DNA of 64,000 bases from Escherichia coli (GTDB taxonomy: Bacteria; Pseudomonadota; Gammaproteobacteria; Enterobacterales; Enterobacteriaceae). The stretch lies in assembly GCF_044324785.1 (NCBI RefSeq), contig NZ_CP172127.1. One strand, given 5' to 3'. Under the pieces are notes generated by a model. The model ran no database searches. It was not told the DNA's origin and saw only the letters and a program-made list of their open reading frames with translations. Position 1 is the first letter of the stretch. The number at the start of each line of letters is the position of its first letter. The translations under genes and the position numbers were made by a program. Shown one piece after another: positions 3,510 through 62,491 of this stretch.

Positions 3510-3757
3510 ATATGCAATAATTAATTGCACTGCCCCGCCAGCTATAATCGCGGGGCTTCGTTTTTCAGGGATCACAAAACCCGAAACTTCTTCCATCTGC
3601 CAGCAACAATGCCTCTTCCTTTATAGTGTTCTCCGGATCTACAGCATCCTGAAGTAGCGCGATGTACTCACTGGCTATCTGCATCAGAAAGTTAAAAACA
3701 ATGTTTTTAACCTATAAAAATGGCGCTGTATTTGCGCCATTTTTATCATTCAATGCA

Positions 3758-4372: not shown

Positions 4373-4777
4373 ATCTACCCTGCTTGTACCATTATGTTAT
4401 ACACCTCTTCAGGAGTATTCATAAAACAAGACAAATGTAAAGAACTGTATTGTTTTGTATAATGCAATGGTGACTAATCGCCAATTAATATAAGCATCAT
4501 CATTTCTCCATATTTTTATATTAAAAGTGACAACGATTTACAGGATGATGCTGAGCTGACAATCACAGGTTTCCTTATCGTTTTTTGCATCGCACAACTA
4601 AAGCAATAAACTAGCTCCCGTCATCGGCGAATATGAATTAATTAACCGGGCTCATAGCTGCATTCGCGTTTTAAGAATAATCCTCCTGCTCTCACCGACT
4701 ATGCTTAACGTTTAAAAAAGCATCAGCACTCTCGCAACGCACTCTTATTTTCCCCTTTAGAATACCGGAGGCCTGGT

Positions 4778-8615: not shown

Positions 8616-8624
8616 GGAGGAACA

Positions 8625-14600: not shown

Positions 14601-15390
14601 CTTCGACTCCTTCCGGTTTAAATGCGCGTGGAACAGTAATTTGATAATCCGGCTCCAGCCAGCCGCCGGGTATGATTTGCCGCTTTCCCGTACCTGTTTC
14701 TATACCGCTTTGATCAATATACTGAAAATAAGGGTGTCCATTACGCCGGGCAAGGTAAAGCATCACCCGGTTGGTTTTAACCGAATGACTGGCGCAGAGT
14801 AACGCCTGCAATTTACGCGGGCTGAGAAGATTCATCCCCTGAAACAGAGCATCGGCATGTTCGAACGATATCAACGAAGGAACGCCGCAGGCGATCTCAT
14901 ACGCGGCCAGTTCCGGGGCACTGCCTGCTAACTGCCGGTCGCCAATTTTCAGTTCCGTAGTCAATGACGTTACATCTACGGTAAGCCCCGATGTATACAG
15001 CGTGATAAATGTTGCAGATTGTTCGAAGGCAGCAAACCATCCCGGCAGCTTAACGTAAGCCGGAAGCGCGAGCCAGACCTGCGGCTTACCCGGTTCGGTA
15101 TAGTGCGCATGGCCCTGAAACGCAAGGCTGGTTAGCCCCGCCACCCGAACAGGCTTTTCCCACTGTGTTTGAAGGCAGTAAACCGCGTCTACCCAATCCG
15201 GCTCACGGCCCGTCCGGCAGTACACGCCGTGAGCGATGCGCCTGAGCCAGCCATTTTGAACATAGAGATAAGAAAGCTTACGATCTACGCCGTTGCGGGT
15301 AAGCCATGACTGGAGCAGCACCTGACCGGGTAGCGTATTTTGCATCAACCAGTTTAGATAGTTTGGCAAATGTCGCTCCTGAATAGACAT
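14587..15390 (-). CDS. AbiEi-family antitoxin/transcriptional regulator
   Basis: 267 aa, immediately upstream of and overlapping the AbiEii gene; N-terminal segment resembles the AbiEi winged-helix domain (GWLRRIAHGVYCR). Confidence 0.65.
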   Translation of the reverse strand: MSIQERHLPNYLNWLMQNTLPGQVLLQSWLTRNGVDRKLSYLYVQNGWLRRIAHGVYCRTGREPDWVDAVYCLQTQWEKPVRVAGLTSLAFQGHAHYTEPGKPQVWLALPAYVKLPGWFAAFEQSATFITLYTSGLTVDVTSLTTELKIGDRQLAGSAPELAAYEIACGVPSLISFEHADALFQGMNLLSPRKLQALLCASHSVKTNRVMLYLARRNGHPYFQYIDQSGIETGTGKRQIIPGGWLEPDYQITVPRAFKPEGVEDGSA

Positions 15391-15652
15391 TAGTAGAAAT
15401 ATTTAAACCAGTGTAGGTTCAGGGATACGCCACAGCAAGAAATAGTTTACTTATTCCTCATTTTGTCTACTTAAAATTGACATTGAGAAAAAAATACAAA
15501 CTTACCTACATTCAGGCAAAGTGCGACAAATAGACTCGGTCGGTTTAAAGAGAACGTGTAACATAGATGCAAATCGAATAGACATTGTTGCCAGCCGTTC
15601 CAAGGTTGTGGGGCGCTGCATGGCCTGAGACGTGATAAATACAGGGAACACA

Positions 15653-18600: not shown

Positions 18601-18751
18601 CTATTTTGAGCGGCAGATTGTGTCATGTGTACTCGATCACTTTGAACAACAGCAGCACATCACCCTGAGTGCGAAAGCGGCTGGCGACATCAACCGCCTG
18701 ATTGTGGCGGAATACCTGAACGAATTTAATACCGGAGCACGTACGTGGTAG
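15653..18751 (+). CDS. hsdR: Type I restriction enzyme, endonuclease/translocase subunit HsdR
   Basis: N-terminal PD-(D/E)xK nuclease motif (IFIEVKK), helicase motif I (HTQGSGKT) and motif II (FLDEVHRS); ATG at 15653 preceded by AGGGA, with an upstream in-frame GTG at 15632. Confidence 0.85.
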   Translation: MKFTEDTRVKIPVILHLIRLGYHYLSLKEQRWDKETNIFPDLFTAAIGRINPGLVPDDIGRLLKDLTLLLDNDDLGRAFFEKLSDRSGIKLIDFDNFNNNSFHVVTELTCENGDEEFRPDITLLINGMPLIFIEVKKPNNREGIVAERNRINERFKNPKFKRFANITQFMIFSNNMEYDDSDPEPIQGAFYASSSYSNPVFNYFREEELFNLTNLLKPLSEETEIAVLKDNNLEVIRTNPEFQTNKDHNRPTNRLCTALLSRDRLAFILRYALVYVAEPGGIQKHIMRYPQLFATKAIERKLNAGVKKGIIWHTQGSGKTALAYYNVRFLTDYFQNQQVIPKFYFIVDRLDLLQQAQREFTARGLIVHLIDSREAFTRDIKATQALHNHHGKAEITVVNIQKFRDDPDVVTTKDYDINIQRVYFLDEVHRSYNPKGSFLANLSQSDTNAIKIGLTGTPLLGTDYNSRDLFGDYIHKYYYNASIADGYTLRLIREEIATNYRMILQQALKDVEVRMGDVDRKDIYAHPSFVKPMLNYIVTDFAKSRGALNDDTIGGMVICDSSEQAKQMFEIFNTDYAESPTAADDVAEEMPVLQAAEPAAVYQIHAKETRKIKRAALILHDVGSKQERKEWVDQFKAGEIDLLFVYNMLLTGFDAKRLKKLYLGRVIRKHNLLQALTRVNRTYNHFRYGYVVDFADIRQEFDATNKAYFEELQAELGDEMEHYSRLFKSADEIREEIEHIKDVLFSFDTENAEIFTDQINQIHDRETALVLKNALADARSLYNLIRLQGNTEFLQALDFNKLNILYREASRRLDLLNLKADLEQGVDLSGLLNRALEEVIFEFHKVGEEELVLADELKETLRRTREALAANFDQQDPQFVSLKDELERLFKKKKLSEVTQQEMVANIGTLNKIHGRIKELNRQNNLLRQKYRGDVKYARTHKRLRERGGLSEPERKIFEALLGVKLDADEKVLNNSQILNNESYFERQIVSCVLDHFEQQQHITLSAKAAGDINRLIVAEYLNEFNTGARTW

Positions 18752-18909
18752 AACTGTAATTTAGAGATAAAACCAAAACCCTGATCGACAGCCTGAAAAG
18801 CATCTGTGCGAACTACGGCCTGGGCAACGACGGTAACGAATTCAAAATTATCACTCAGGCATTCCTGTACAAATTCCTGAACGACAAATTCGCCTTTGAA
18901 GCCAAAAAG

Positions 18910-20382
18910 GTGGATAAAAGCATCGCCAGCGCCGAAAAATGGGAAGTCGCGCTCAATCAGATGAGCGAAGAACAGCGGGATAAACTGCAACTGAAGATGA
19001 GCGCCGACACTGCGCGTCTGAAGCCGCATCACTTCATTCAGTATTTATACAACCGTCAAAATGAGGCCAATTTCGCCACCACCTTTGACGACACCCTGAT
19101 GGACATCGCCGCCACCAACAACGACGTCTTCGCGGTCAAAACTGACGGCGGCGCGAAAGTGGTGCTGTTTGAGCGCCTCAGCCAGTACATCGCCGACGAA
19201 TCAAGGCGCGACGACTTCTGCCGCGCCATTATCAACAAACTGGCCGATTTCAGCTTCGAGCGCATCTTCACGCAGAAATTCGACTTCTACGCCACTATCT
19301 TTGAATACCTGATCAAAGACTACAACAGCAACTCCGGCGGCAAATACGCGGAATACTATACGCCCCACGCCGTGGCGCGCATCATGGCGGAAATCCTGGT
19401 GCCGAAAGCACAACAGGGCGTAGTGCGCAACGTAAGCTGTTACGACCCGTCCGCCGGTTCCGGCACCTTACTGATGAACGTGGCGCACGCCATCGGGGAA
19501 GATCGTTGCAGCATCTTCGCGCAGGACATCTCGCAGAAATCCTCCAGCCTGCTGCGCCTGAACCTGATCCTCAACAATCTGGTGCATTCGATCCCCAACG
19601 TGATTCAGGGCAACACCATTCTGCACCCGTTCCACAAGGACGGCAGCGCGCTGAAACGCTTTGACTATATCGTCTCTAACCCGCCGTTTAAGATGGATTT
19701 CAGCGATTTCCGCGACGATTTGGATAGCAAGGAAAACCAGCAACGTTTCTTTGCCGGGATACCAAAAATCAAAGCCAAAGCCAGGGACAAAATGGAAATT
19801 TACCAGTTGTTCCTGCAACACATCATTTTCTCGCTGAAACCGGATGGTAAGGCGGCGGTCGTGGTGCCGACCGGGTTTATCACCGCGCAGTCGGGCATTG
19901 ATAAAGGGATTCGCGAACATCTGGTGAAAAACAAGATGCTGGCGGGTGTGGTTTCCATGCCGTCGAATATCTTCGCCACCACCGGCACTAACGTATCGAT
20001 CCTGTTTATTGACGCCAGCAACAAAGAGAAAGTGGTGCTGATCGACGCCTCGAATTTAGGTGAAAAGGTCAAAGACGGCAAAAACCAGAAAACGGTGCTG
20101 ACCGAAGAAGAAGAGCAGCGCATCTGCGAAGTGTTCAACAACAAGTGGAGCGAAGAGGATTTCTCGGTGGTGGTCAGCTATGACGAGATCGCCGGGAAAA
20201 ATTACTCGTTCAGCGCCGGGCAGTATTTCGATGTGAAAATTGAATACACCGATATGACGCCGGAACAGTTTGCCGCGAAGATGAACGGGTTTACGGAGAA
20301 TCTGGAGAGTTTGTTTAGCCAGTCGCGCGAGCTGGAGGTGGAGATTAAAAAGCAGATGGCGGGGCTGAATTTCCATGGTTAA
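18910..20382 (+). CDS. hsdM: Type I restriction-modification methyltransferase subunit HsdM (start uncertain)
   Basis: AdoMet motif DPSAGSGTLL, catalytic NPPF, and the conserved EYYTPHAVARIMAEIL segment. The annotated start is a GTG; about 150 bp of in-frame HsdM-like sequence lies upstream without a canonical start (see findings). Confidence 0.8.
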   Translation: MDKSIASAEKWEVALNQMSEEQRDKLQLKMSADTARLKPHHFIQYLYNRQNEANFATTFDDTLMDIAATNNDVFAVKTDGGAKVVLFERLSQYIADESRRDDFCRAIINKLADFSFERIFTQKFDFYATIFEYLIKDYNSNSGGKYAEYYTPHAVARIMAEILVPKAQQGVVRNVSCYDPSAGSGTLLMNVAHAIGEDRCSIFAQDISQKSSSLLRLNLILNNLVHSIPNVIQGNTILHPFHKDGSALKRFDYIVSNPPFKMDFSDFRDDLDSKENQQRFFAGIPKIKAKARDKMEIYQLFLQHIIFSLKPDGKAAVVVPTGFITAQSGIDKGIREHLVKNKMLAGVVSMPSNIFATTGTNVSILFIDASNKEKVVLIDASNLGEKVKDGKNQKTVLTEEEEQRICEVFNNKWSEEDFSVVVSYDEIAGKNYSFSAGQYFDVKIEYTDMTPEQFAAKMNGFTENLESLFSQSRELEVEIKKQMAGLNFHG

Positions 20383-21493
20383 AACTATTGGTGATGCTTG
20401 TAATATTAGTACAGGTAAACTTGATGCAAACCAGGCTGTAAAAGGTGGTGATTATCCGTTTTTTACGTGCGCAGAGTTCCCTGAACAAATCGATCATTAT
20501 GCATTTGACGGCGATGTGGTTCTTATTGCTGGCAATAATGCAAGAGGAAACTTTCACGTAAGCAGGTATCAAGGGAAATTTAATGCTTACCAGCGAACCT
20601 ATGTGCTTACAGCCAAACATGGTTATGATATTGATTATATTTACTATGCCTTAAGACTTGAATTAAAGCGATTGCGAGAAAAATCTCAAGGCTCGCAAAC
20701 AAAGTTTCTGACAATGCCGATTTTGACCAGTATATCGCTAGGAAACCTAGTCGAGACTGAACAATCGACAGTTTCAAGAGTATTAAAAATACTGGATAAA
20801 AAAATCGCTCTCAACAATCGTATCAACGCCGAGCTGGAAGCGATGGCGAAAACACTGTATGACTACTGGTTTGTACAGTTTGATTTCCCTGATGCCAACG
20901 GAAAACCGTATAAAACCTCCGGCGGGAAGATGGTGTACAACGCCACGCTGAAACGGGAAATTCCGGCGGGGTGGAATATTAAAAATCTTGGCGATATAGC
21001 GGAACTATATCAGCCTAAGACCATTTCAGGTAACGATTTTATTGATGATGGTGAATATCTTGTATATGGAGCCAACGGTATTGTAGGAAGATTCAATAAA
21101 TATAACCATGAAGAACCTGTCGTTACAATCACCTGCCGTGGAAATACGTGCGGCAATATAAACGTCACACGACCATATTCATGGATTACAGGGAATGCAA
21201 TGGTGGTTAAGCCAAAGTTTAACTATATTTCACCTTATTATATTTATAATTTATTGTCGATATCGGAAGTTGATAAAGTCATTACTGGCTCTGCTCAACC
21301 TCAAATTACGCGAGCAAACCTAGCTCCACTTAAGGTTGTTGAACCAGCAGAGGACATTACGCAAAAATACTCAAAGTCTGTTGATGCTTTTTTTAAAAAG
21401 CATATCTCAATATTAGATGAAAATGATAATTTATTAAAACTCCGCGACTGGCTCCTCCCCCTGCTTATGAACGGACAGGTCACGGTCAAATAA
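20375..21493 (+). CDS. hsdS: Type I restriction-modification specificity subunit HsdS (two target-recognition domains)
   Basis: 372 aa; overlaps the hsdM stop by 8 bp; two variable AT-rich domains separated by a central conserved spacer (LDKKIALNNRINAELEAMAKTLYDYWFVQFDFPD) and a C-terminal conserved helix (LLKLRDWLLPLLMNGQVTV). Confidence 0.8.
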   Translation: MVKTIGDACNISTGKLDANQAVKGGDYPFFTCAEFPEQIDHYAFDGDVVLIAGNNARGNFHVSRYQGKFNAYQRTYVLTAKHGYDIDYIYYALRLELKRLREKSQGSQTKFLTMPILTSISLGNLVETEQSTVSRVLKILDKKIALNNRINAELEAMAKTLYDYWFVQFDFPDANGKPYKTSGGKMVYNATLKREIPAGWNIKNLGDIAELYQPKTISGNDFIDDGEYLVYGANGIVGRFNKYNHEEPVVTITCRGNTCGNINVTRPYSWITGNAMVVKPKFNYISPYYIYNLLSISEVDKVITGSAQPQITRANLAPLKVVEPAEDITQKYSKSVDAFFKKHISILDENDNLLKLRDWLLPLLMNGQVTVK

Positions 21494-21653
21494 TCCCCGC
21501 CGTGTTTTGCGAGGCGCATTCCAGATCCACATTGCGCCGCGCTCACCGCTGTAAAACCGCTTGCCGTTCATAACCGATCGAAGTATCTTTCTCCCGCGCC
21601 TGCAAAATCAGGCGTCGGGATTAGCCTCCTGAAAACCGTTACAGGCGACACTT

Positions 21654-21673
21654 GACGCACCAGCGTCTTTTTT
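21654..21673 (+). terminator. Weak intrinsic-terminator-like hairpin downstream of hsdS
   Basis: GACGC-ACCA-GCGTC hairpin followed by TTTTTT; the 5-bp stem is marginal. Confidence 0.35.
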
Positions 21674-21835
21674 GTGTCGTGCGTTCGGCTACACCTCAAT
21701 GGCGGGCCGGGCGGGGGCGTCGCAAGACGCGCCGGTTTCCTGTAACGCCGGTAAGGCTAACCCCGTCCGGTTCCGCCACCCATGAGATTAGCCTCTCTAG
21801 TGGCGGACATAATAAACCGTTACAGGAGATGCCCT

Positions 21836-22306
21836 ATGGCTACAATCCTCACCCCTGACTGCGATTTACTCGATCTGTTATCCGTTCCCTTCAATGCCAC
21901 CACGGATTTTACTGTCCTTGCCGATTACTGCACCCGCTTCGCCGAAACCCTGATAGAAACCGACGATCCCGCGCTGCGGCTGGCGCTGAGCGGACGGCTT
22001 CACGCGGCTCTTGCGCTACTGCAACCCACACTGCATGACCCCATCCCGCCGCATCTTACCGAAAGCCTGACCGTTAATACCCTTCCCGCCACACCAGAGC
22101 ACTTTATTTCCGAACCCGATTCCTTGTGCGAATACTGCCTCGCACTGCTCCAGCTTCTGCTGGAACGCCCGGCGGAGCCAAAAATGGAGCAAACCCTGAC
22201 CGGGCTGCTGTGTGAGCTGGTCTGGAATTTCACGGAAGGACTCAAATCCCCGCGCTGGCTGCGTACCGCCGACGGCGTAAAATTTATCAGTGAGGTGGCC
22301 GCATGA
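21836..22306 (+). CDS. Hypothetical protein (157 aa from ATG 21836), unknown function
   Basis: ATG at 21836 preceded by CAGGAG; Leu/Ala-rich, no recognisable motif; its stop overlaps the start of the downstream Ner-like fragment (ATGATG). Confidence 0.5.
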
Positions 22307-22655
22307 TGCAACAGGACTGGCATTCCACCGACATTATCGCCACGCTGAAAAAGCGGGGAACGTCTCTGGCGGCGCAGAGAAAAACTCATTGCGGACGCGC
22401 TGTAAATATCGTCAGAAATCATCTGGCCTTCAAGGTACTTTGATAGCAAAGGCAAGCAGGCTGGTTCAGTCCCGTGTTTCTCTTCTTGCATTTTCAGAAA
22501 TGGGAGGCTGGGAGTCTATCGAAATGGTTCGTCGATATGCTCACCTCGCACCTAATCACCTTACCGAACACGCACGGCAAATAGACTCGATCCTGAACCC
22601 ATCGGTCCCAAATTTGTCCCAGTCAAAAAATAAGGAAGGTACTAATGATGTGTAA
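22303..22655 (+). pseudogene. Fusion remnant: frameshifted Ner/Nlp-like HTH gene fragment joined to the 3' end (~190 bp) of a tyrosine-integrase gene
   Basis: The first 24 codons ([24 protein letters not shown]) match the Ner/Nlp family N-terminus as I recall it, then the frame breaks. From about 22460 the DNA and translation ([36 protein letters not shown]) parallel the C-terminus of the intact int at 62240-62431, and the stop sits at the same offset from the tRNA-derived repeat. Confidence 0.55.
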
Positions 22656-22715
22656 CTTATTGATTTAAATGGTGCCGATAATAGGAGTCGAACCTACGAC
22701 CTTCGCATTACGAAT
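22652..22715. repeat. Prophage attachment-site repeat (attL): 64-bp direct repeat containing the 3'-terminal 46 nt of tRNA-Thr (thrW)
   Basis: Identical 64-mer to 62428-62491 (GTAACTTATTGATTTAAATGGTGCCGATAATAGGAGTCGAACCTACGACCTTCGCATTACGAAT); the sequences diverge on both sides. Confidence 0.85.
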
Positions 22716-23044
22716 CTGTAGAACCAATCATAACTATCTGTTTTAGCAAGCATTAACCGCATTCACCAAGCAATAGTTGATGGCACAAACAGAAAGTTGA
22801 TGCATGATGTTGTCATGTGTATGTCACAAATACGGCACAACGATCTTCAAACATGTAGCCACCCAGCATAGAAGAGCACAAATCCTTGCAATCCAGTGCA
22901 AAGCTTTGTGTACCTTAGTTTTGTCTCATAGGTAATTCTGCTTTAACTGCGATGCAGGAATCTGTCACCAGACGCACGTCTCGTTGTTTTATGGTTTTCC
23001 GTTCATGATTAATATGTTAGCTTGTCAAAGTTTGTGTTTAAGAT

Positions 23045-23716
23045 ATGGTGATTGATGCAATGTTAAGCGTTCAGATGACTCCACAAGCAAAAGTTAGCTT
23101 CGAGGAGCAATGTTTTTTTCATGCTTCATGTCTTGTTGTTGCCCCAATAAATGTTGGAGCATTCTCCTACTTTGGCGCTAATTGTATGCTCGGCGGCTTT
23201 ACGATGGGTAGATTTTGTTCAGTTGCTCCAGGAGTAAAAATTGGCCTTGGCGAGCATGAAACTGGGTATTTTTCTACGCATCCTTTTTTCTTTGGCTCAA
23301 AAAATGGTTTTAAAATCCCTGATGGTATAGGAATGCAACGCGACCTCTCTCAACAGAAGCATGGTATACCAAGAATTGGTCATGACGTATGGATAGGTGC
23401 AAATGCGGTTATCAGGCGAGGTATAACTATTGGTACTGGCGCTGTTATTGCTGCTGGCGCTATTGTCACCAAAAATGTCGATCCATATTCAATCGTAGGT
23501 GGCGTTTCTGCAAAACACCTAGGGTACAGATTTGAGGAATCAATCATCAAAGAGTTACTGGATAGCCAATGGTGGGAATATGATTTAAGCTCATTTATTG
23601 GGATTGATACAAGGACACCGACGACTTTTTTAGAGCAGTTTAATGCTGTAAAAGATAAAAAGAAGGCATCTTATAAGAGATTTACAATTCTTCCATCCGG
23701 TGAAATTGTTGAATAG
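23045..23716 (+). CDS. Hexapeptide-repeat xenobiotic acetyltransferase (XAT; Vat/CatB-like)
   Basis: Left-handed beta-helix repeats plus the C-terminal segment [53 protein letters not shown]...[10 protein letters not shown], which closely parallels streptogramin-A / chloramphenicol-B acetyltransferases as I recall them; AT-rich; lies between attL and the tailspike gene. Confidence 0.7.
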
Positions 23717-23735
23717 CGCATCCCTGCGCTATATT

Positions 23736-26105
23736 TTAAATAAACATAAGAATAAACATCAGAAGTTCTTCGTATCTGATACCATACTGATAGCCAGCAG
23801 GTTTAATAATAACCTGCCTTCCTGTGTAATATTCCTCGTCGTACCACTCTCCTGTTTCATTGTTTTTAACACTCCTAATCAATACCTCTGGAGCATAAAT
23901 ATCATCCCATTCATCATAACACCAGAACGCATAGTTATTAGGGTCAAGACCGTATTTTCTGAGAATATTACCTACAGTTTGTGCACCAACGCCGAAATGA
24001 ATCCGAGCGCCATCACTCTTGATCTTTACTGCATCTTTAAATTTAAACCTCCAGATATTTTCCTTTATTTCAAGCGCAGCAAGACGCTCTGATTCTGTTG
24101 TTTTCTCGTCAGCCTCAATACGCAATTTCAGCTCTTCATTCGACGTGTTGATACTGCCAGTACCAGCGTATACCTGTGACCATCGAAATGCTGATGTTCC
24201 GTTTGAGTTAACATTATCAACAGTTGGTTTTATAAGGCCAGAAAAATGAGTTTCAGGTGTATTAATATATGTATATGCACCTGCTGTACTACGAGTCCTT
24301 AACTCAAAGCTGTCTATATCAACACCAGTCCTACGAATTATAAGGAAGTTATTTCCTGCGGAACCAGTATCGGTTTGAGTGCTAACAGACAATCCGTTTC
24401 GTGTATCAATACGTATATTCTTCCCGTTCTCCAGCGAAGCAGAATTATGTAGATACAGCGAGTTGTCAGTGTAGAGATTGTGTTTACCTACATTGCTAAA
24501 TGTATAAGTATTGCTTGTGTTATCACTGTTCCTATGGAATTGCTGAAGAGTGTAGGCAGAAGATGCTCCGTATCCATCACAATGGAAATTTCTGCACAGC
24601 TGCAAATCGAATAACAATACGGTGTCAGCATTAATGCTCACATTATTAAAGCATGTTGCAAAGTTGGCACCATACTGTGAATTGGAATCGCCAATCTGTG
24701 CGCACACATCAAGCAAACCAAAAGTTACATTGGTAAAGTTATTTGCATCACCGGCGTCAAGAACAATCCCTTTCTTAGTCCCTGAATACCCTCTGGCAGT
24801 GCCGATCTCAACTCCCTGGAATGAACACACGCGAGCACGACTAAGCTTAAGACCAACCCATTCCAGACCATGATCGTAACCTTTTGCTGCGCGGTGAATA
24901 AACATACCATTCATGATGAGAAGGAATCTGTTATCAAGCCGTACTGGTTCAAGTTGGGCATTAATACCAACATTTGTGCATATACATTCACCATAAGCAT
25001 AACGATTCGTTTCAAATATACGATCATCAGCGTCGTAAATGCCTCGTAATGCCTTGGCGGCATCAATATTAAGCAATGTAAAATATGTCTTCTGCTTAAT
25101 TTCAAAAAAATTTGCAACATTATGCGTTGTGATATCACTCACACGCATTGATAAAATCCCCTCTTCTGGAGCGGTGCGAATGAATCCATCAAGGAACTGT
25201 TCATTATAACTTTTGGCTATCTGATAACATCCAACAGCATCAATGCGTTCGATTGTGAACTGCCAACTATCACCACAGTTAAAAGACCATCTCCAGCCGT
25301 ATTTCTGAGCGAATTCATCATATTCAACATTTGCAGGTTCAGAACAGAAAGATAAAAATCTAAATGTTGGTTTTGGCCTTAGATGGTTAATCCCGGAACC
25401 TCTTGGGGTATATATGGCATTATCTCCATTCCCACCTTTTGTTTTAACTGTAAGGTGACTTAAACCAAATTCAATATCATATTTAGTTGGTGCGGCGAAA
25501 ACAAAGCCGTCTTTTGGTGATGTGGTATTGTCAAACACAATAACCGTTTCACCCTGCCCATCACCGCACATATTTACTGGTGGTATATTAACGGGGCCAG
25601 TCAAACTATATGTTCCAGTTGGCACATATAGTTTTCCACCCTCTCCAATAGCATTTGCCGCTGCAATAAATGCCGCCGTATCATCGTTAACACCGTCACC
25701 TTTCGCCCCATAATGCTGTGGCGTAATTAACAGCATACGGTCAGAAAAAATCTCTGTCCTAAGTTGATCAGGATCGTATTTTAATACATTTGGAAAATAA
25801 AACTGCTGAGTGCCATATGCATCATATACAGCCATAGAATGGCCTTGCACGGTAACGAATTTGGCAATCTGTCCGTTATATACCGGATAACCAGCAGCGT
25901 TAATAATGATTGGTTGAGAAACAGGAACGTGAGAACCGTCTTCGTTCTCTACATAAACCGGAATCTGGTTTTCAGGATTTACCGGGTCAGTGTCAATTTT
26001 ACCGATATAAATTTTTCCATTAGCATTTGCTTTAAACGAGCGAGCTAAAGTGAATAACTGACTTGGTTGTGAAACAACAACATTGGCATTTATTGAATCT
26101 GTCAT
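23736..26105 (-). CDS. Phage tailspike protein (P22 gp9-like head-binding domain with a divergent receptor-binding body)
   Basis: N-terminal ~115 aa ([18 protein letters not shown]...[12 protein letters not shown]...[13 protein letters not shown]...VLKYDPDQ) match the P22 tailspike head-binding domain; the remainder is unrelated and AT-rich at the 3' end. Confidence 0.85.
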
Positions 26106-26204
26106 TTAATTTACTCCAGATACAAGGAATCGCCGCAGCATGGCTACGGTGAATTTTGGGCATAAAAAACCCAGCCGAAGCTGGGTCGTTGCGTTGGTTA
26201 TCTG

Positions 26205-27083
26205 TCAGTAGTTATGTACTGAAGGAGGTAATTCTTTATTCTTAAGTCTCATCCATGCGGAAATATTCGTTGGTCCGTCTGGCTCATTAATATCAACATC
26301 TCGTGTGTGATTGATTAAAACGTCTCTCGCCATTCCGATAACATACGAGAATTCATGACCGTAGTCGTAGCATCTGCCGGAATAGTTCGATTGAATTTGT
26401 TTCAGCGCCGGATACAGTTCGCGGAATAATGCCTGTGAGCGGTTGGCATAATCCCATAACCATACAAGGCTGTTTGCTTCTTTTGCAGAAAGCTCGTTGG
26501 TTTTCTTCTCTTGTTTGCCAATGAACTCACCTTCAAGCACTACCCTGTGGATGTACTCTACGGCCAGCGGGATTTGTTCAATTGAAAGTTCATCAATGCT
26601 GTCAATACCAAAACGCTGATGAACCATATTGTATGCATCGTCATAGCGAAGTCCTTTCTTTCCTACCAGCATGTTTACTGCATCGCGTAGCGGTGTTCTT
26701 TCCTCAACAGTGGTTTTCTTTCCTTTTACATACTCGCCATGTTTGCGAATTGAAGGCAGAACTTCTGCTGTTACCCACTTGCGGAATTTGTGCGGGACTG
26801 AACCTTTATTGACTGCATCGCGGCAGCGCAGAACCAATGTATACATACCTGATTCGCTCACAATGCTTAGATTCTGCTCACCACCAAGGGTGTAACTTAA
26901 AGTTACTCCCTTTTCATCGTCATCAAGTGCAGTAAGCGCCTTGCGTGAGTTAGTCAAATCTAAAGCATCACAAACATCTTTAGCTACAAACCACGGCTCA
27001 CCGCACTTGTTGATGACGCGGATTTCACTGTCGCCGAATTTGAAGATGGTGAAATCGTTTTGTGCCTTTGCTATACTTTTCAT
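26205..27083 (-). CDS. ant: Antirepressor Ant (Bro-N/KilAC type) of the immI region
   Basis: 292 aa; N-terminus [25 protein letters not shown] is typical of P22-like Ant; sits downstream of arc. Confidence 0.8.
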
Positions 27084-27151
27084 GTCAATATTTCCTAATC
27101 CGATTTGTTGATGCCGAAGCCCTGACTGTTACAGCAGTTGGGGCTTCAACT

Positions 27152-27313
27152 TTACGCACCAATGCGCCCTTCCTTCTTAAAGCTTTCCATTACTCGCTGA
27201 TAAATCTCAGAATTAACAGACCGACCATTTTCTTCCGCCACCTTGCGTACCAAATCCAATACTTCTTTAGGCCACCGCAAATTGAACTGTGGCATTTTGC
27301 TCATTCCTTTCAT
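27152..27313 (-). CDS. arc: Arc repressor (53 aa)
   Basis: From the internal ATG at 27313: MKGMSKMPQFNLRWPKEVLDLVRKVAEENGRSVNSEIYQRVMESFKKEGRIGA, essentially the P22 Arc sequence as I recall it. Confidence 0.9.
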   Translation of the reverse strand: MKGMSKMPQFNLRWPKEVLDLVRKVAEENGRSVNSEIYQRVMESFKKEGRIGA

Positions 27314-27403
27314 GTTCACCTCACAATATAGGTCCACGGTGGACCTATTGAGAATATAGTAGAGTGCTTCTATCATGTCAATACACTAACTTGGAGTGAT
27401 GGC
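27314..27403. promoter_or_regulatory. Divergent Pant/Pmnt control region with Arc and Mnt operators
   Basis: Perfect palindrome TAGGTCCACGGTGGACCTA (Mnt operator) and ATAGTAGAGTGCTTCTATCAT (Arc operator) between the divergent arc and mnt starts. Confidence 0.85.
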
Positions 27404-27658
27404 ATGGCTAGAGATGATCCGCACTTTAACTTCCGTATGCCTTTGGAAGTAAGAGAAAAATTGAAATTAAGAGCCGAGGCTAACGGAAGGTCAATGAACT
27501 CTGAGTTATTACAAATCGTTCAGGATGCACTATCAAAACCATCACCGATTACAGGATATCGCGACGAAGCTGAACGCTTGGCTGATCAGCAGGCTGAGCA
27601 GTTCAAGGCTATAGTGTTTGAGACACTTAAAAAGATTTATGAAAAGGATTTGAAATGA
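27404..27658 (+). CDS. mnt: Mnt repressor (maintenance of lysogeny)
   Basis: 84 aa, MARDDPHFNFRMPLEVREKLKLRAEANGRSMNSELLQIVQDALSKPSP...; ribbon-helix-helix N-terminus like P22 Mnt. Confidence 0.9.
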   Translation: MARDDPHFNFRMPLEVREKLKLRAEANGRSMNSELLQIVQDALSKPSPITGYRDEAERLADQQAEQFKAIVFETLKKIYEKDLK

Positions 27659-27709
27659 GATTTCTATCACTGTTCTTGTTAGCAGTTGTCTCTTCTTCCA
27701 GTGCTGAGC

Positions 27710-28766
27710 GGCTTTGTTGAATAAATCGAACTTTTGCTGAGTTGAAGGATCAGATCACGTATCTTCCCGACAACGCAGACCGTTCCGTGGCAAAGCAAAA
27801 GTTCAAAATCACCAACTGGCCCACCTACAATAAAGCCCTCATCAACCGTGGCTCCATAACTTTCTGGCTGGATGATGAAGCTATTCAGGCCTGGTATGAG
27901 TCAGCAACACCTTCTTCACGAGGCAGACCTCAGCGCTATTCTGACCTTGCCATCACTACTGTGCTGGTCATTAAACGCGTATTCAGGCTGACCCTGCGGG
28001 CTGCGCAGGGCTTTATTGATTCCATTTTTTCTCTGATGAACGTTCCGCTACGCTGCCCGGATTACAGCTGTGTCAGCAGGCGGGCAAAGTCGGTTAATGT
28101 CAGTTTCAAAACGCCCACCCGGGGTGAAATCGCACACCTGGTAATTGATTCCACCGGGCTGAAGGTCTTCGGTGAAGGCGAGTGGAAAGTCAAAAAGCAT
28201 GGCCAGGAACGCCGCCGTATCTGGCGTAAGCTGCATCTCGCCGTTGACAGTAAAACACATGAAATCATCTGCGCTGACCTGTCGCTGAACAACGTTACGG
28301 ACTCAGAGGCCTTCCCCGGGTTAATCCGGCAAACCCACCGGAAAATCAGGTCAGCCGCCGCCGATGGCGCTTACGATACCCGGCTATGTCACGATGAACT
28401 GCGGCGTAAGAAAATCAGCGCGCTTATCCCTCCCCGAAAAGGTGCGGGTTACTGGCCCGGTGAATATGCAGACCGTAACCGTGCAGTGGCTAATCAGCGA
28501 ATGACCGGGAGTAATGCGCGGTGGAAATGGACAACAGATTACAACCGTCGCTCGATAGCGGAAACGGCGATGTACCGGGTAAAACAGCTGTTCGGGGGTT
28601 CACTGACGCTGCGTGACTACGATGGTCAGGTTGCGGAGGCTATGGCCCTGGTACGAGCGCTGAACAAAATGACGAAAGCAGGTATGCCTGAAAGCGTGCG
28701 TATTGCCTGAAAACACAACCCGCTACGGGGGAGACTTACCCGAAATCTGATTTATTCAACAAAGCC
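27710..28766 (+). mobile_element. IS903-like insertion sequence (IS5 family), 1057 bp, flanked by a 9-bp target-site duplication
   Basis: Terminal inverted repeats GGCTTTGTTGAATAAATC (27710-27727) and GATTTATTCAACAAAGCC (28749-28766); direct 9-bp duplication GTGCTGAGC at 27701-27709 and 28767-28775; 1057 bp matches IS903. Confidence 0.9.
27787..28710 (+). CDS. IS903-type DDE transposase (307 aa from GTG 27787)
   Basis: The VAKQKFKITNWPTYNKALINRGSITFWLDDEAIQAWYE N-terminus matches IS903 transposase as I recall it; the ORF is also open from an upstream ATG at 27742. Confidence 0.85.
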   Translation: MAKQKFKITNWPTYNKALINRGSITFWLDDEAIQAWYESATPSSRGRPQRYSDLAITTVLVIKRVFRLTLRAAQGFIDSIFSLMNVPLRCPDYSCVSRRAKSVNVSFKTPTRGEIAHLVIDSTGLKVFGEGEWKVKKHGQERRRIWRKLHLAVDSKTHEIICADLSLNNVTDSEAFPGLIRQTHRKIRSAAADGAYDTRLCHDELRRKKISALIPPRKGAGYWPGEYADRNRAVANQRMTGSNARWKWTTDYNRRSIAETAMYRVKQLFGGSLTLRDYDGQVAEAMALVRALNKMTKAGMPESVRIA

Positions 28767-29071
28767 GTGCTGAGCTGCGCGAGCTTCAAACGGGTAATGA
28801 CCTTCTTTACAACATTCAACAAGGTAAAAAGGGTGATGATTTTTCATCGCTTTACATTACTGGATATTTGCGCGGAGTAACTGACTCATTGATACTAATT
28901 GGTTCTCTATGTCCTCCTGATGGCGTTGACATGTATCAATACACCGATATCGTTGAGAAATCTCTAAACAAAAACCCAGAATCAAGAAATGAGAGTGCAG
29001 TTATACTAACCGCCCTAGCAGTAGGAAAAACATTTCCGTGCAAAAAGAATCAATAACAATAAGGGCTTAAA

Positions 29072-29461
29072 ATGAAATTGATTATAGCAATGGCTTTCCT
29101 TGTCTTCTCGTTTTCTGTCTCAGCAGAGTGCTGGGTCGTTGGAGATATGCACGGAATAAGCTATTCAGAACGAAATAATTTTCAACCGGAAGAAGATGGT
29201 TTTAGTGGAACATTCATCATTAAGACAAACGGTGAAGATGCCAGTATCACATATTCTGGGACGGATGCGGGCGGCATGGCTTACAAAGCATTGTCTAAAA
29301 ACTCCATCCTAGGAATTGGCGCGAATGGAGAAACTCAACGCGTTATAGACTCATGGGTAATACATCCTACTGGAACAGTTTTAATGTCAAAAACCATTTC
29401 CGGTTATGGAAATATGGATTCAACCAAAGCTTTTGTTGGAAAAGTAAAAAGAAAATGTTAA
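29072..29461 (+). CDS. Hypothetical secreted/periplasmic protein (129 aa)
   Basis: Signal peptide MKLIIAMAFLVFSFSVSAEC; second gene of the mnt-downstream operon; no recognisable domain. Confidence 0.6.
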   Translation: MKLIIAMAFLVFSFSVSAECWVVGDMHGISYSERNNFQPEEDGFSGTFIIKTNGEDASITYSGTDAGGMAYKALSKNSILGIGANGETQRVIDSWVIHPTGTVLMSKTISGYGNMDSTKAFVGKVKRKC

Positions 29462-29482
29462 CGATAGGATTATGGCCCTACA

Positions 29483-29677
29483 TCAACAGCTTCCGCGTCC
29501 CTGAGTAATTCTGTTGCGGATTTGCTTCTTGCGGTGGTTTAAGCTGGAGAGCTTGGCTTCTGCTTCTGATATTTGCGCATCAAGATCTTTAAGCTCAAGA
29601 TCTGAAAGTCGCTGGTCAAGCAGGGTTTGGTTCAACTCAATATTGTTCAGACGTTCTTCTATGGTCATAACTTTCAT
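29483..29677 (-). CDS. Small coiled-coil protein (about 64 aa from ATG 29677)
   Basis: Heptad-rich MKVMTIEERLNNIELNQTLLDQRLSDLELKDLDAQISEAEAKLSSLNHRKKQIRNRI; start codon choice is uncertain. Confidence 0.4.
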   Translation of the reverse strand: MKVMTIEERLNNIELNQTLLDQRLSDLELKDLDAQISEAEAKLSSLNHRKKQIRNRITQGRGSC

Positions 29678-29699
29678 CCTATAACTATTTGGAATCAAA

Positions 29700-29882
29700 A
29701 TGAAAAATATATTAATTGGTTTCGTTTTTGGTGCAGCCTGCGCTGCCAGCATTAGCGTTATCGCCGCCCAGATTGTTGGTGGTAACTCATATCTAATGGG
29801 CTATGACGTCATGATAGATGGAGAGGTTGTTTGCTCAGACCCTTATGTATGGACGTCGACAAAAGAAATAGAATGTGACTAA
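29700..29882 (+). CDS. Small signal-peptide/membrane protein (60 aa)
   Basis: [28 protein letters not shown] hydrophobic N-terminus; AT-rich cargo region. Confidence 0.35.
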
Positions 29883-29977
29883 TACCAGCCTGATGGCTGG
29901 TTAATTTTTGCATTTACCTGGGCCATATTGACTACTTATAAAATGAGATCAATATTTAATCGCCCAATAACGGGTGT

Positions 29978-30172
29978 ATGTTGAGGTATATCATGGCGAA
30001 AAAACCAGGTGAAAATACAGGGAAAAACGGCGGAATATACCAGGAAGTTGGTCCACGCGGTGGTAAGAAGGACAATTTTGCCACCGTCAGGGACAACGAA
30101 AGACTTCCGCCAACAACAAAGCCAGGTCATGGCTGGGTATTGGATAAGCGAACTCCAGACAGCAAAAAGTAA
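29978..30172 (+). CDS. Small basic Gly/Lys-rich protein (64 aa; start may be ATG 29993)
   Basis: ORF only; MAKKPGENTGKNGGIYQEVGPRGGKKDN. Confidence 0.3.
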   Translation: MLRYIMAKKPGENTGKNGGIYQEVGPRGGKKDNFATVRDNERLPPTTKPGHGWVLDKRTPDSKK

Positions 30173-30185
30173 TAATCAAGCCGGG

Positions 30186-30551
30186 TCACTCCGGCTTTTT
30201 GATATGTCGCTCGCAGAACTCAACAAGCCTGCTCATTAAGTAGCAGTAAGTCTCGTTGGCTCTTCCTGGTTCAACATCAACACCTACCCTTGAGCAGATA
30301 TCGAATGCCATGTGAGCGCACTCATGGGCAATAGTAGATAGTTTGCCATTGAACACGCCTATCACATGCAAAACACCATTCTCGCTACTCATTGTATGAG
30401 ACGCTCCGTTGGCGTCCGAGTCATGCACGTCAACGCCAAGTTTTTGATGCAGGCGTTGCCATTCTGGAAAGTCTCTACAAAACACAATGGTACCGCTCTC
30501 AAAGAGCGGTACGAGCATCTTTGGTACGTTTCCAATGTTAACTTTTTTCAT
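30186..30551 (-). CDS. Small HExxH-motif protein (putative Zn-metallopeptidase-like), 121 aa
   Basis: Contains IAHECAHMAF (HExxH) plus downstream E/C residues; no further similarity recognised. Confidence 0.45.
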   Translation of the reverse strand: MKKVNIGNVPKMLVPLFESGTIVFCRDFPEWQRLHQKLGVDVHDSDANGASHTMSSENGVLHVIGVFNGKLSTIAHECAHMAFDICSRVGVDVEPGRANETYCYLMSRLVEFCERHIKKPE

Positions 30552-30582
30552 GGTATCCTGCGCAAAACTAAGGAGGTTGGTG

Positions 30583-30770
30583 TGAAGAAAAAATTTGTAA
30601 ACGTTGCAAAGTGCGCAATTTTTATATTTTTTATGACCTTTTACGGATTTAGTGCCGGAGAAGGTTTCGATCGTGATGCCAATGCATTCAGTTTCTTTTG
30701 TCTGTCTATAGTGGTCATAATTGTATGGGTGGAATTAAAGCAAACATTGTTTCATGTGCTAGGGAAATAA
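30583..30770 (+). CDS. Small two-TM membrane protein (62 aa from GTG 30583)
   Basis: Strong RBS AAGGAGG 6 bp upstream of GTG; VKKKFVNVAKCAIFIFFMTFYGFSAGEGFDRDANAFSFFCLSIVVIIVWVELKQTLFHVLGK. Confidence 0.45.
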
Positions 30771-30787
30771 CCATCCATGGCATTTAG

Positions 30788-47392: not shown

Positions 47393-47468
47393 TGGTGCTG
47401 GTTAACGGACTTGAACCGCTAGCCATTCGCTTACAAGGCGACCGCTCTACCATTGGAGCTAAACCAGC
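47393..47468 (-). tRNA. Prophage-encoded tRNA (76 nt; anticodon read as UGU, Thr)
   Basis: Hand fold of GCTGGTT...AACCAGCACCA: 7-bp acceptor stem, D-arm GCTC/GAGC, T-arm AGCGG-TTCAAGT-CCGTT, CCA encoded; the anticodon stem has one mismatch. Confidence 0.55.
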
Positions 47469-47473
47469 ATGTT

Positions 47474-47548
47474 TGGCGGGACAGCGTGGACTCGAACCAC
47501 GATAAGAAGGTTAACAGCCTTCCGTAATGACCTTTATACGACTGACCC
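47474..47548 (-). tRNA. Prophage-encoded tRNA-like gene (75 nt; anticodon read as GUU, Asn), possibly degenerate
   Basis: T-arm CGTGG-TTCGAGT-CCACG and anticodon arm GAAGG-CTGTTAA-CCTTC are clean; the acceptor and D stems each have one mismatch; CCA encoded. Confidence 0.45.
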
Positions 47549-61394: not shown

Positions 61395-62431
61395 AAGCAG
61401 AAGCGTGGAGAGTAAAAAATCTCGGGGAATCACCGAAAAAGCTATTCAAGGAAGCCTGCATACGGTGGCTGCGTGAGAAATCGGATAAGAAGTCCATTGA
61501 TGATGACAAGAGCATTATATCGTTCTGGATGTTGCACTTCAGAGAAACCATTCTCTCAGACATAACAACAGAAAAAATAATGGAGGCGGTAGACGGGATG
61601 GAAAACCGCCGCCATCGCCTGAACTGGGAAATGAGCCGGGACAGGTGTTTGCGGCTTGGCAAGCCAGTGCCGGAGTATAAACCAAAGCTGGCAAGCAAAG
61701 GAACGAAGACGCGGCATCTGGCAATACTTCGCGCTATTCTCAATATGGCTGTTGAATGGGGATGGCTTGACAGGGCGCCCAAAATATCAACACCACGCGT
61801 TAAGAATGGACGAATCAGATGGCTTACAGAGGAGGAATCGAAGCGCCTGTTTGCAGAAATTGCTCCTCATTTCTTCCCTGTGGTCATGTTTGCAATCACG
61901 ACAGGCCTTCGCCGTTCCAACGTTACAGACCTTGAGTGGTCACAGGTCGATCTGGATAAGAAAATGGCATGGATGCACCCTGATGAAACAAAAGCTGGCA
62001 ATGCGATCGGAGTTCCTCTTAACGAAACCGCATGCCAGATATTAAGAAAACAGCAGGGTCTCCATAAGAGATGGGTGTTTGTCCACACCAAACCTGCCTA
62101 CCGAAGCGACGGAACAAAAACAGCAGCGGTAAGGAAGATGAGAACCGACAGCAACAAGGCATGGAAGGGAGCGTTAAAGCGGGCAGGCATTAGCAACTTC
62201 CGCTTCCATGACCTGAGGCATACCTGGGCAAGCTGGCTGGTTCAGTCCGGTGTCTCTCTTCTTGCACTTAAAGAGATGGGAGGATGGGAAACTCTCGAAA
62301 TGGTTCAAAGATACGCCCACCTTTCAGCCGGGCATCTCACCGAGCACGCGAGCAAAATCGATGCGATTATAAGTCGCAATGGCACAAATACGGCACAAGA
62401 GGAGAACGTGGTTTACTTAAATGCGAGGTAA
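61271..62431 (+). CDS. int: Tyrosine integrase (P22-like)
   Basis: 386 aa; catalytic-domain residues (...RFHDLRHTWASWLVQSGVSLLALKEMGGWETLEMVQRYAHL) and N-terminus like P22 Int; its stop lies inside the att repeat next to thrW. Confidence 0.9.
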   Translation: MSIKLRGGTWHCDFVAPDGSRVRRSLETSDKRQAQELHDRLKAEAWRVKNLGESPKKLFKEACIRWLREKSDKKSIDDDKSIISFWMLHFRETILSDITTEKIMEAVDGMENRRHRLNWEMSRDRCLRLGKPVPEYKPKLASKGTKTRHLAILRAILNMAVEWGWLDRAPKISTPRVKNGRIRWLTEEESKRLFAEIAPHFFPVVMFAITTGLRRSNVTDLEWSQVDLDKKMAWMHPDETKAGNAIGVPLNETACQILRKQQGLHKRWVFVHTKPAYRSDGTKTAAVRKMRTDSNKAWKGALKRAGISNFRFHDLRHTWASWLVQSGVSLLALKEMGGWETLEMVQRYAHLSAGHLTEHASKIDAIISRNGTNTAQEENVVYLNAR

Positions 62432-62491
62432 CTTATTGATTTAAATGGTGCCGATAATAGGAGTCGAACCTACGACCTTCGCATTACGAAT
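62428..62491. repeat. Prophage attachment-site repeat (attR): 64 bp overlapping the thrW 3' end
   Basis: Identical to 22652-22715. Confidence 0.85.

Follow-up and report, generated by a model that had tools for sequence, protein, structure and literature searches.

We analysed 64,000 nucleotides of Escherichia coli DNA (the whole stretch is called the window below), which carries a P22-like prophage of ~39.8 kb at tRNA-Thr(cgt), recognized by its att repeats and P22 gene order. The prophage is apparently complete. Compared with complete E. coli genomes, the backbone reaches 98.7% identity at best. Table 1 lists the features of the prophage and of the insertion described here. The mnt, arc and ant homologs lie in the P22 arrangement, with the identities to P22 given in the table. 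A sequence-only reading had placed the insertion in an "immI/sie region". The immI part of this description was confirmed, whereas the sie part was not: tblastn of P22 SieA gave a best E value of 2.0 at an unrelated position, and no homolog of sieA or sieB was found in the window. The presence of either gene in the immI region was thus ruled out by the homology searches.

Table 1. Coordinates of the insertion and of the surrounding prophage features in the window.
Feature	Position	Strand	Description or basis
Prophage left att	22652..22715		perfect 64-nt direct repeat
ant (antirepressor) homolog	26205..27083	-	Pfam Bro-N and P22_AR_C; 85% identity to P22 Ant over the latter's C-terminal part
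arc homolog, 53 aa	27152..27313	-	Pfam Arc; 98% aa identity to P22 Arc
Divergent promoter-like sites, P22 Pmnt/Pant position	27348-27376; 27381-27353	+; -	consensus scan only
mnt homolog, 84 aa, intact	27404..27658	+	Pfam Arc and Repressor_Mnt; 81% aa identity to P22 Mnt
Disrupted Rap1a/Tai4-family gene, 5' fragment	27655..27709	+	18 native codons, covering little beyond the hydrophobic N-terminal leader
9-bp target-site duplication, left copy GTGCTGAGC	27701..27709		raw sequence and script; 9-mer single in every empty-site locus
IS903B, complete	27710..28766	+	1057 bp; 1057/1057 identity to annotated copies
IRL, 18-bp terminal inverted repeat GGCTTTGTTGAATAAATC	27710..27727	+	sequence inspection, script
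Transposase ORF, 322 aa from TTG 27742	27742..28710	+	RefSeq CDS of identical copy (WP_000654812.1)
IRR, 18-bp terminal inverted repeat	28749..28766	-	sequence inspection, script
9-bp target-site duplication, right copy GTGCTGAGC	28767..28775		raw sequence and script
Disrupted Rap1a/Tai4-family gene, 3' fragment	28776..29056	+	codons 19-111 and stop
orf129	29072..29461	+	phrog_2651, unknown function
orf60	29700..29882	+	phrog_37095, unknown function
P22 orf59a homolog	29993..30172	+	96.6% aa identity
Bidirectional terminator-like hairpin, P22 mnt terminator position	30178..30197		consensus scan and P22 annotation
Integrase	61271-62431		
Prophage right att	62428..62491		overlaps 3' part of tRNA-Thr(cgt) 62446-62521

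The reverse complement of IRR equals IRL at 18/18 positions (script on the raw sequence), and the likeness stops directly inside position 18. When up to three mismatches were allowed, the inverted-repeat pattern matched the window at IRL and IRR only; 0.09 matches were expected by chance, and two or more matches occurred in 0/100 shuffles. The 9-mer GTGCTGAGC was found at the two tabulated sites and nowhere else on either strand of the 64 kb, and the duplication ends at 9 bp, the adjoining bases being GGC vs. TGC. The length of 1057 bp, the perfect 18-bp inverted repeats, the 9-bp duplication and the coordinates given in the sequence-only reading were all correct on re-inspection of the raw sequence. 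The intact IS903-type element that it described is IS903B (IS5 family, IS903 group), with 100% nucleotide identity over the full length to many RefSeq E. coli copies, an intact DDE transposase and the 9-bp duplication. The CDS of the identical RefSeq copies is named "IS5-like element IS903B family transposase". As an element IS903B is already known, very common and well characterized: related copies were present in 1,993 of 5,426 complete E. coli genomes, and matches at ≥99% identity came from 1,054 records. Blastn of the element against the 64-kb window detected no second copy, full or partial, and a composite transposon or second IS was ruled out by the single copy and zero fragments. The target preference of IS903 has been published as WTTYA-N9-TRAAW (PMC2577343), which is a statistical preference only. 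The flanks at this site, TTCCA (4/5) and TGCGC (2/5), match it weakly with 6/10 positions in total.

The transposase matched Pfam DDE_Tnp_1_5 (PF13737) with E=2.9e-40 and DDE_Tnp_1 (PF01609) with E=5.9e-33, and scored 357.6 bits against NCBIfam NF033579 (IS5 family transposase; cutoff 140). The classical 307-aa IS903 product begins at GTG 27787. In the numbering of this shorter product, that of the established IS903 literature, the protein carries the catalytic triad D121, D193 and E259 together with Y252, R255 and K266. This IS903B copy is complete and apparently functional, with an intact transposase.

The insertion point is codon 19 of a 111-codon gene of the Rap1a/Tai4 family. The ATG of this gene overlaps the mnt stop codon (ATGA), and the same 4-nt overlap was found in 10/10 related loci; 51 bp lie between the mnt stop codon and IS903B. 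The 5' fragment now encodes MRFLSLFLLAVVSSSSAE-RLC-stop, and translation coming from the split gene is ended by an in-frame TGA at 27718-27720 inside IRL, so that the output would be the leader and three foreign codons. The split gene and the transposase ORF share a frame. A rap1a'-tnp fusion protein was nevertheless rejected, since the TGA in IRL halts translation. The 3' fragment has neither a start codon nor a leader. The Rap1a-like gene in the window is therefore a null allele, a pseudogene, and mnt, arc and ant are left intact by the insertion. According to the sequence-only reading the element had separated mnt from its downstream genes. IS903B does lie downstream of mnt, but this wording understated the damage: the insertion is not intergenic, and the first downstream gene is itself destroyed.

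Removal of IS903B and one repeat copy from the window restored an ORF of 111 aa. The restored protein matched Pfam PF18602 (Rap1a) with E=1e-13 and 52 bits (cutoff 27.7), covering profile positions 1-90 of 90. Its AlphaFold model (pLDDT 80.7) is predicted to be all-helical, and the top seven Foldseek matches of the model in the PDB were Rap1a (4bi8, 3zfi) and Tai4 (6ije, 6ijf), all with a probability of 1.00 and target-normalised TM scores of 0.73-0.78; the next matches had TM scores of about 0.3 or less. Sequence identity to the solved members was 22-26% in the fold search, and a sequence-only PDB search gave a marginal Tai4 match (E=1.7). Two Cys are invariant among the homologs of the protein and both align with Cys of Tai4 6ijf, and the N-terminus (MRFLSLFLLAVVSSSSA, then E) resembles a Sec leader as judged by eye. 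The orthologous intact gene is annotated as "Rap1a/Tai family immunity protein", and the gene belongs with a PHROGs family of unknown function, phrog_3870. Based on the profile match and the predicted fold, we assign the disrupted gene to the Rap1a/Tai4 family. Among 50,697 phage records no close homolog was found in sequenced phage isolates, and tblastn gave four weak matches only. The restored ORF is 1 nt in 336 off the commonest allele, and the split gene is without secondary decay.

We then compared the locus with empty and filled sites elsewhere. The uninterrupted 1.2-kb flank construct was found in 24 complete E. coli genomes at 98-99% identity, and the exact unbroken target was present in 24/24 of these full-length copies and in 10/10 related contigs. 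E. coli C carries one GTGCTGAGC with identical flanks, and the exact 60-mer empty site was found in 11/11 comparator loci. The 5,426 complete E. coli genomes contained no filled site; the exact 41-nt left junction gave 0 matches in 100,044 species-representative genomes and 0 in metagenome contigs. In public data the filled left junction was detected in the Logan contig SRR31073010_212, which is 100% identical to window positions 22686-27738 and breaks off 29 nt into the IRL side of the element. SRR31073010 may come from the same isolate as the window, and hence perhaps is not an independent occurrence. The right junction was not recovered from public assemblies, where no record matched the exact 62-aa truncated product. 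The exact gp16 of the prophage was common to 891 blocks; those displayed lay in unrelated prophages. As neither the complete E. coli genomes nor the species representatives that were searched contain the filled site, it could serve as a clean strain or lineage marker.

We conclude, with a probability of about 0.93, that the locus is a real and precise insertion of the known IS903B into the Rap1a-like gene of a P22-like prophage at tRNA-Thr(cgt). IS903B would have transposed into the integrated prophage, the DDE transposase recognizing the 18-bp terminal repeats and joining the element ends to the target DNA. A 9-bp stagger in the target cut, followed by gap repair, would have produced the duplication of GTGCTGAGC.

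The IS-bearing immI segment, or a whole IS-bearing phage, might instead have come by infection or homologous recombination, with no transposition in the present host. P22-like prophages are very mosaic near the insertion, where both the tailspikes and the gene sets between mnt and gp16 differ, and the prophage looks complete. Its length of 39.8 kb is below that of P22 (41.7 kb), and the IS-bearing genome should therefore still be packageable. The absence of other filled sites from the complete E. coli, species-representative and metagenome collections argues against such an import, and the one other filled site, which agrees with the window at 100% identity along 5 kb, may belong to the same strain. 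We consider import unlikely. An imported segment would alter only the place of transposition and not the nature of the feature.

It is more doubtful still that the insertion was selected, either because it silenced a costly immunity gene or because signals borne by the IS altered expression of the mnt operon or of downstream genes, rather than being a neutral hit. IS903B is oriented the same way as the mnt unit, and the scan gave a promoter-like site at 28926-28953 and, within tnp, a terminator-like hairpin (27992-28010). However, these signals are consensus matches only (seven promoter-like sites were found vs. 6.2 expected in shuffles), and the insertions are not recurrent, no other insertion at the Rap1a-like locus having been found in 24 + 10 related loci.

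The timing of the insertion can be judged from the same comparisons. The sequence-only reading had called it recent, and it probably is: the exact empty sites, the undecayed split gene and the rarity of the filled allele are all consistent with this. It is not datable, however, since thousands of genomes carry near-identical copies of IS903B. For the same reason, near-identity across thousands of records (1,054 at ≥99%), the 100% identity of the element is a poor clock, which leaves some room for an old, fixed and immobile insertion. The intact restored ORF, the duplication at 9/9, the inverted repeats at 18/18, the intact tnp and the very rare filled allele against the empty sites make such an origin quite improbable. 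An assembly artefact, with a repeated IS misplaced into the prophage, is hardly credible: IS copies are a classic cause of misassembly and the right junction has no independent recovery, but an exact 9-bp duplication with perfectly collinear flanks is not expected from misjoining, and the short-read contig of SRR31073010 has the same left junction and breaks within the IS, which is what a real repeat copy should produce.

The consequences of the insertion may extend beyond the split gene. The Rap1a-like gene directly follows mnt and is presumably co-transcribed with it in the mnt transcription unit, which is expressed in lysogens. The insertion has moved the plus-strand genes orf129, orf60 and orf59a 1,066 bp farther from Pmnt, and polarity is possible; orf129, which begins 15 bp past the Rap1a-like stop, would be the first gene open to such effects. 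The presence of IS903B in a complete-looking and packageable P22-like genome also suggests a possible phage route for IS spread.

The element itself matters little; the insertion draws notice to a little-noticed prophage accessory gene that may provide immunity to type VI secretion (T6SS). No adjacent Tae4/Ssp1 effector or T6SS genes were found in the loci examined. In these loci the gene is flanked by mnt and by phage ORFs with no known function, so that this would be an "orphan" immunity gene, whose product plausibly protects against amidase effectors of the T6SS. Translational coupling to mnt would make the gene constitutively expressed in lysogens. It is possible, though we put this forward as tentative, that P22-like prophages of one subset, present in about 0.5% of the complete E. 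coli genomes, carry this orphan Rap1a/Tai4-type gene as a constitutive, mnt-coupled lysogenic-conversion factor guarding the host from Tae4/Ssp1-type T6SS amidases. In the library of papers searched, none was found that describes an mnt-coupled orphan Rap1a/Tai4-type prophage gene. If the proposal is true, the IS903B allele is a ready-made natural knock-out for testing T6SS protection by the prophage.

The classical descriptions of IS903, as found in Tn903, and of the related IS102 are those of Grindley and Joyce (1980) and Hu and Derbyshire (1998). The element in the window resembles both in its length class, 18-bp ends, 9-bp duplication, 307-codon transposase frame and D121/D193/E259. Going by how identical copies are annotated, it is the IS903B isoform, in which it differs from IS903 of Tn903; it is also a single IS rather than part of a composite transposon. 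The P22-like Shigella phage Sf6 carries IS911. There, too, an otherwise complete P22-like genome harbours an IS in a region that is not essential, but the IS family and the location differ. IS903B has been described as a 1057-bp element with 9-bp direct repeats that transposes actively in clinical isolates and disrupts mgrB in Klebsiella (PMC10513040). The RefSeq E. coli copies and those in Klebsiella mgrB share with the present copy the length, ends, duplication, single DDE transposase and gene inactivation. The insertion site alone differs, and in the collections searched it was filled only here and in one read assembly.

As in P22 immI (BK000583), homologs of mnt, arc and ant form a divergent group between the tailspike gene and gp16, and the mnt unit ends in a homolog of orf59a and a terminator-like hairpin. 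Unlike P22, the window is without sieA, and the receptor-binding part of the tailspike and several head genes of the prophage are of a different type. In P22 orf59a directly follows mnt, whereas in the window the plus-strand Rap1a-like gene, orf129 and orf60 lie between them. Rap1a of Serratia marcescens and Tai4 of Agrobacterium, Salmonella and Enterobacter are periplasmic immunity proteins to the T6SS amidase effectors Ssp1 and Tae4. Although the gene described here differs from theirs in its position in a prophage regulatory operon, away from effector or T6SS genes, its product resembles Rap1a and Tai4 in the full-length PF18602 match, the predicted helical fold, the hydrophobic N-terminal leader and the two invariant Cys.

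The element is 1057 bp long, as read from the raw sequence and by script. The 18 bases at its left end, GGCTTTGTTGAATAAATC, and the 18 at its right end are exact reverse complements of each other, and the similarity of the two termini is gone directly inside position 18. The 9-mer GTGCTGAGC adjoins both ends, and no further occurrence was found on either strand of the window. When three mismatches or fewer were allowed, the inverted-repeat pattern gave two matches in the window, both at the IS ends (chance expectation 0.09), and none of 100 shuffles gave two or more; a blastn search of the complete window with the element as query detected neither another full copy nor a fragment. The feature is real and exceeds chance expectation by far, and every figure in the sequence-only reading for size, 18-bp terminal repeats, 9-bp duplication and coordinates was confirmed.

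The element is IS903B, already known and not new. Over its whole length it shares 100% identity with many copies in complete E. coli genomes; RefSeq names the coding sequences of these copies "IS5-like element IS903B family transposase". Related copies occur in 1,993 of 5,426 E. coli genomes (median 2 per carrier genome). The lone long ORF matches Pfam DDE_Tnp_1_5 and DDE_Tnp_1 and reaches 357.6 bits against the NCBIfam IS5-family equivalog NF033579 (cutoff 140). D121, D193, E259 and the Y252/R255/K266 signature were all found (307-aa numbering, GTG at 27787), and these residue numbers follow the established IS903 literature. The RefSeq transposase of an identical copy begins at a TTG equivalent to 27742 (322 aa), 45 nt upstream of this classical IS903 GTG start. 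Each feature that defines the IS903 group and is open to in silico testing was found in the element. The call of an intact IS903-type element was borne out by 100% identity to IS903B copies, an intact DDE transposase and the 9-bp duplication. In clinical Klebsiella, IS903B has been described as a 1057-bp element with 9-bp direct repeats on either side that is actively transposing into mgrB (PMC10513040). Just inside the left inverted repeat (IRL), upstream of the transposase start, are two closely spaced GATC (Dam) sites, and a G+C-rich terminator-like hairpin (consensus match only) lies within the transposase coding sequence.

The insertion had been taken as separating mnt from its downstream genes; it is actually inside the first of these genes and not intergenic. 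The ATG of this gene (27655) overlaps the mnt stop codon (ATGA), and when the IS is deleted together with one of the two 9-mers, a 111-codon ORF is restored. The IS entered at codon 19, changing CTG to CGG. Translation of the 5' fragment can give no more than MRFLSLFLLAVVSSSSAE followed by RLC, where it meets a TGA within the IRL, and the 3' fragment has neither start codon nor leader; judged from its sequence, the window copy is a null allele. A Rap1a'-transposase fusion protein was rejected: the frame is the same, but the TGA in the IRL blocks it.

The restored protein matches the whole Pfam profile PF18602 "Rap1a immunity proteins" (E = 1e-13, 52 bits, cutoff 27.7), and its E. coli orthologs are annotated "Rap1a/Tai family immunity protein". 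Since similarity to the solved Tai4 was marginal at the sequence level (E = 1.7), the structure was predicted from a 7-sequence alignment, giving four helices after the leader (pLDDT 80.7). Structures of only two proteins made up the best seven PDB fold matches, namely Rap1a of S. marcescens, among them its complex with Ssp1, and Tai4 of A. tumefaciens, at probability 1.00 and TM 0.73-0.78 (normalised by target); the next fell to TM ∼0.3 or less. The N-terminal leader is hydrophobic, and two Cys residues are invariant among homologs and aligned with Cys in Tai4. Serratia homologs are 74-78% identical. No effector gene adjoins the Rap1a-like gene, so it would be an "orphan"; from family and fold alone, it may be counted as a candidate orphan gene for T6SS immunity carried by a phage. 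A minority of P22-like prophages have the gene, translationally coupled to mnt through the ATGA overlap. No description of a phage-borne gene of this kind was found in the literature searched, and no close homolog in 50,697 sequenced phage records; the family is present in PHROGs, entered there as unknown function. The only mildly new point is a predicted Rap1a/Tai4-fold protein in the lysogen-expressed mnt unit (presumably co-transcribed) of this minority of prophages.

With the IS left out, a 1.2-kb construct of the two flanks aligned without a break to 24 complete E. coli genomes, the identity being 98-99%. The empty site of E. coli C reads ...CTTCTTCCAGTGCTGAGCTGCGCGAGC..., with one GTGCTGAGC, and the restored ORF differs from the E. 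coli C allele by one nucleotide, hence one residue. The Rap1a-like gene is present in 25 of the 5,426 complete genomes, each time beside an mnt-type gene and never interrupted by an IS; one copy, in strain BA92 (NZ_CP176406), is cut by a deletion. The first 229 nt of the BA92 copy are 100% identical to the window, after which the sequence runs into a truncated Q antiterminator gene; the prophage remnant, located at a tRNA-Arg site, not tRNA-Thr, has undergone a large deletion here. Ten of ten long contigs shown with exactly the window's orf129 have an intact 111-aa Rap1a gene with a 4-nt mnt overlap, and the exact 60-mer empty site was found in 11 of 11 comparator loci. Possibly the phage arrived already bearing the IS, or recombination brought in an IS-bearing segment, as the mosaic region would allow, but this alters only where transposition occurred.

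The mnt gene is intact, with 51 bp between the end of its stop codon and the IS. Transcription of mnt in P22 continues through orf59a to a terminator. In the window, mnt is followed on the plus strand by the Rap1a-like gene, orf129, orf60 and an orf59a homolog (96.6% identity), with a terminator-like hairpin after it. Based on the P22 transcript layout and this gene order, the IS probably puts 1,066 bp between the mnt promoter and orf129-orf59a, on which it may be polar. Selection of the insertion for a regulatory effect could draw on consensus motifs, such as a promoter-like site, and on nothing beyond them.

Insertion of IS903B is documented by intact ends, an intact DDE transposase, the 9-bp duplication and a precise empty site. 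Following IS903 biology, the transposase would bind the 18-bp ends, the 3'-OH ends of the element would attack the target with a 9-bp stagger, and gap repair would create the duplication. IS903 makes mainly simple insertions and occasionally cointegrates. Compared with the published target preference WTTYA-N9-TRAAW (PMC2577343 Table 1), the flanks TTCCA (4/5) and TGCGC (2/5) make one good half-site and one poor; such a target is unremarkable, the preference being statistical. The insertion had been called recent, and the perfect ends, the lack of decay in the split gene and the rarity of the allele agree with this, but, given the near-identity of IS903B copies everywhere (1,054 records at at least 99%), no date can be attached to it. 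An old relic is disfavoured, as no decay at all was seen.

No filled junction was found in complete E. coli genomes, in 100,044 species-representative genomes or in the metagenome contigs searched. One public read assembly contains it: contig SRR31073010_212 matches window 22686-27738 with 100% identity, ending 29 nt inside the IRL and, at the other end, inside the att repeat, breakpoints that are expected of a short-read assembler at real repeats. The right junction was not recovered independently from public assemblies. An assembly artefact is essentially excluded by the exact 9-bp duplication and by the filled junction of this independent contig; the contig, whose sample may be the same strain, rules out an artefact of long-read assembly. 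We concluded that a common IS has inserted here in an ordinary way; the event is real, and the sequence-only reading described it well. It is chiefly useful as a strain marker and because it provides a natural knock-out of a gene that is a candidate for lysogenic conversion.

Coordinates of the IS903B insertion, its target gene and surrounding features (window positions unless a comparator locus is named)
Feature	Coordinates	Strand	Remark
AbiEii/AbiEi type IV toxin-antitoxin pair	13680-15390		defence island
hsdR	15632-18751		type I restriction-modification, defence island
hsdM	18910-20382		type I restriction-modification, defence island
hsdS	20375-21493		type I restriction-modification, defence island
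Truncated integrase remnant	22290-22655		abuts left att copy
att direct repeat, left	22652-22715		perfect, 64 nt
Acyltransferase gene, hexapeptide-repeat	23045-23716	+	between left att and tailspike, where P22 has gtrABC
Tailspike	23736-26105		P22-type head-binding N-terminus
Rap1a-like gene	27655-27709 + 28776-29056		split by IS
Rap1a-like gene, locus L001	6546-6881
Rap1a-like gene, loci L006-L015	2650-2985
Rap1a-like gene, BA92 (locus L002)	6546-6774		first 229 nt
9-bp duplication, left	27701-27709
IS903B	27710-28766		1057 bp
GATC sites	27748-27757		IS positions 39 and 44
Hairpin within transposase gene	27992-28010
Last 18 bases of IS	28749-28766
9-bp duplication, right	28767-28775
Promoter-like site	28926-28953		consensus match only
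Terminator-like hairpin	30178-30197		after orf59a homolog
tRNA genes Thr(tgt) and Asn(gtt)	47393-47548	-	prophage genes, near late/lysis region
Integrase gene	61271-62431		adjoins att repeat
att direct repeat, right	62428-62491		overlaps 3' part of tRNA-Thr(cgt)
tRNA-Thr(cgt)	62446-62521		overlapped by att repeat

The backbone is E. coli-like, with ecp fimbrial and pao aldehyde oxidoreductase genes (window 1-9000). Its identity to any of the 5,426 complete E. coli genomes is unusually low (at most 98.7%), which suggests that the host is of a lineage, or a near-relative, not represented in this collection. A defence island (13680-22715) is located left of the prophage. Within the integrase remnant that the island also contains, positions 22451-22591 share 77% identity with the 3' end of the prophage int; this similarity and the abutment of the remnant on the left att copy suggest that an earlier island occupied this tRNA-Thr site and that the phage then integrated in tandem.

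The 64-nt repeat at tRNA-Thr(cgt), beside the integrase gene, delimits a ∼39.8-kb prophage. Mapping of P22 proteins gave the P22 gene order portal, scaffold, gp4, gp10, gp26, gp14, gp7, gp20 and gp16, followed by the immI genes, tailspike, int/xis, replication and lysis genes. With this order and uninterrupted ORFs at the coat and terminase positions, the prophage looks complete. The acyltransferase gene is possibly an O-antigen acetylation (serotype-conversion) gene, and the pectate-lyase-type receptor domain of the tailspike is unrelated to P22 gp9. Between mnt and gene 16 lies an accessory slot that is hypervariable (window 28800-30800; 5400-7700 in comparator loci L017-L026), in which prophages with the identical 636-aa gp16 differ, carrying a P63C-domain protein, a SocA_Panacea-domain protein or small ORFs. 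The window slot holds orf129, orf60, orf59a and, where P22 has sieA, a 121-aa minus-strand ORF (phrog_1365).

Placement of the insertion in an immI/sie region held for its immI part only. Homologs of sieA (best E = 2.0), sieB and gtrABC are absent from the window. Mnt is 81% identical to P22 Mnt (Pfam Arc and Repressor_Mnt), Arc is 98% identical to P22 Arc, and the C-terminal part of Ant is 85% identical to P22 Ant. The three genes are arranged as in P22; the region is of P22 type, with extra accessory genes and no sieA.
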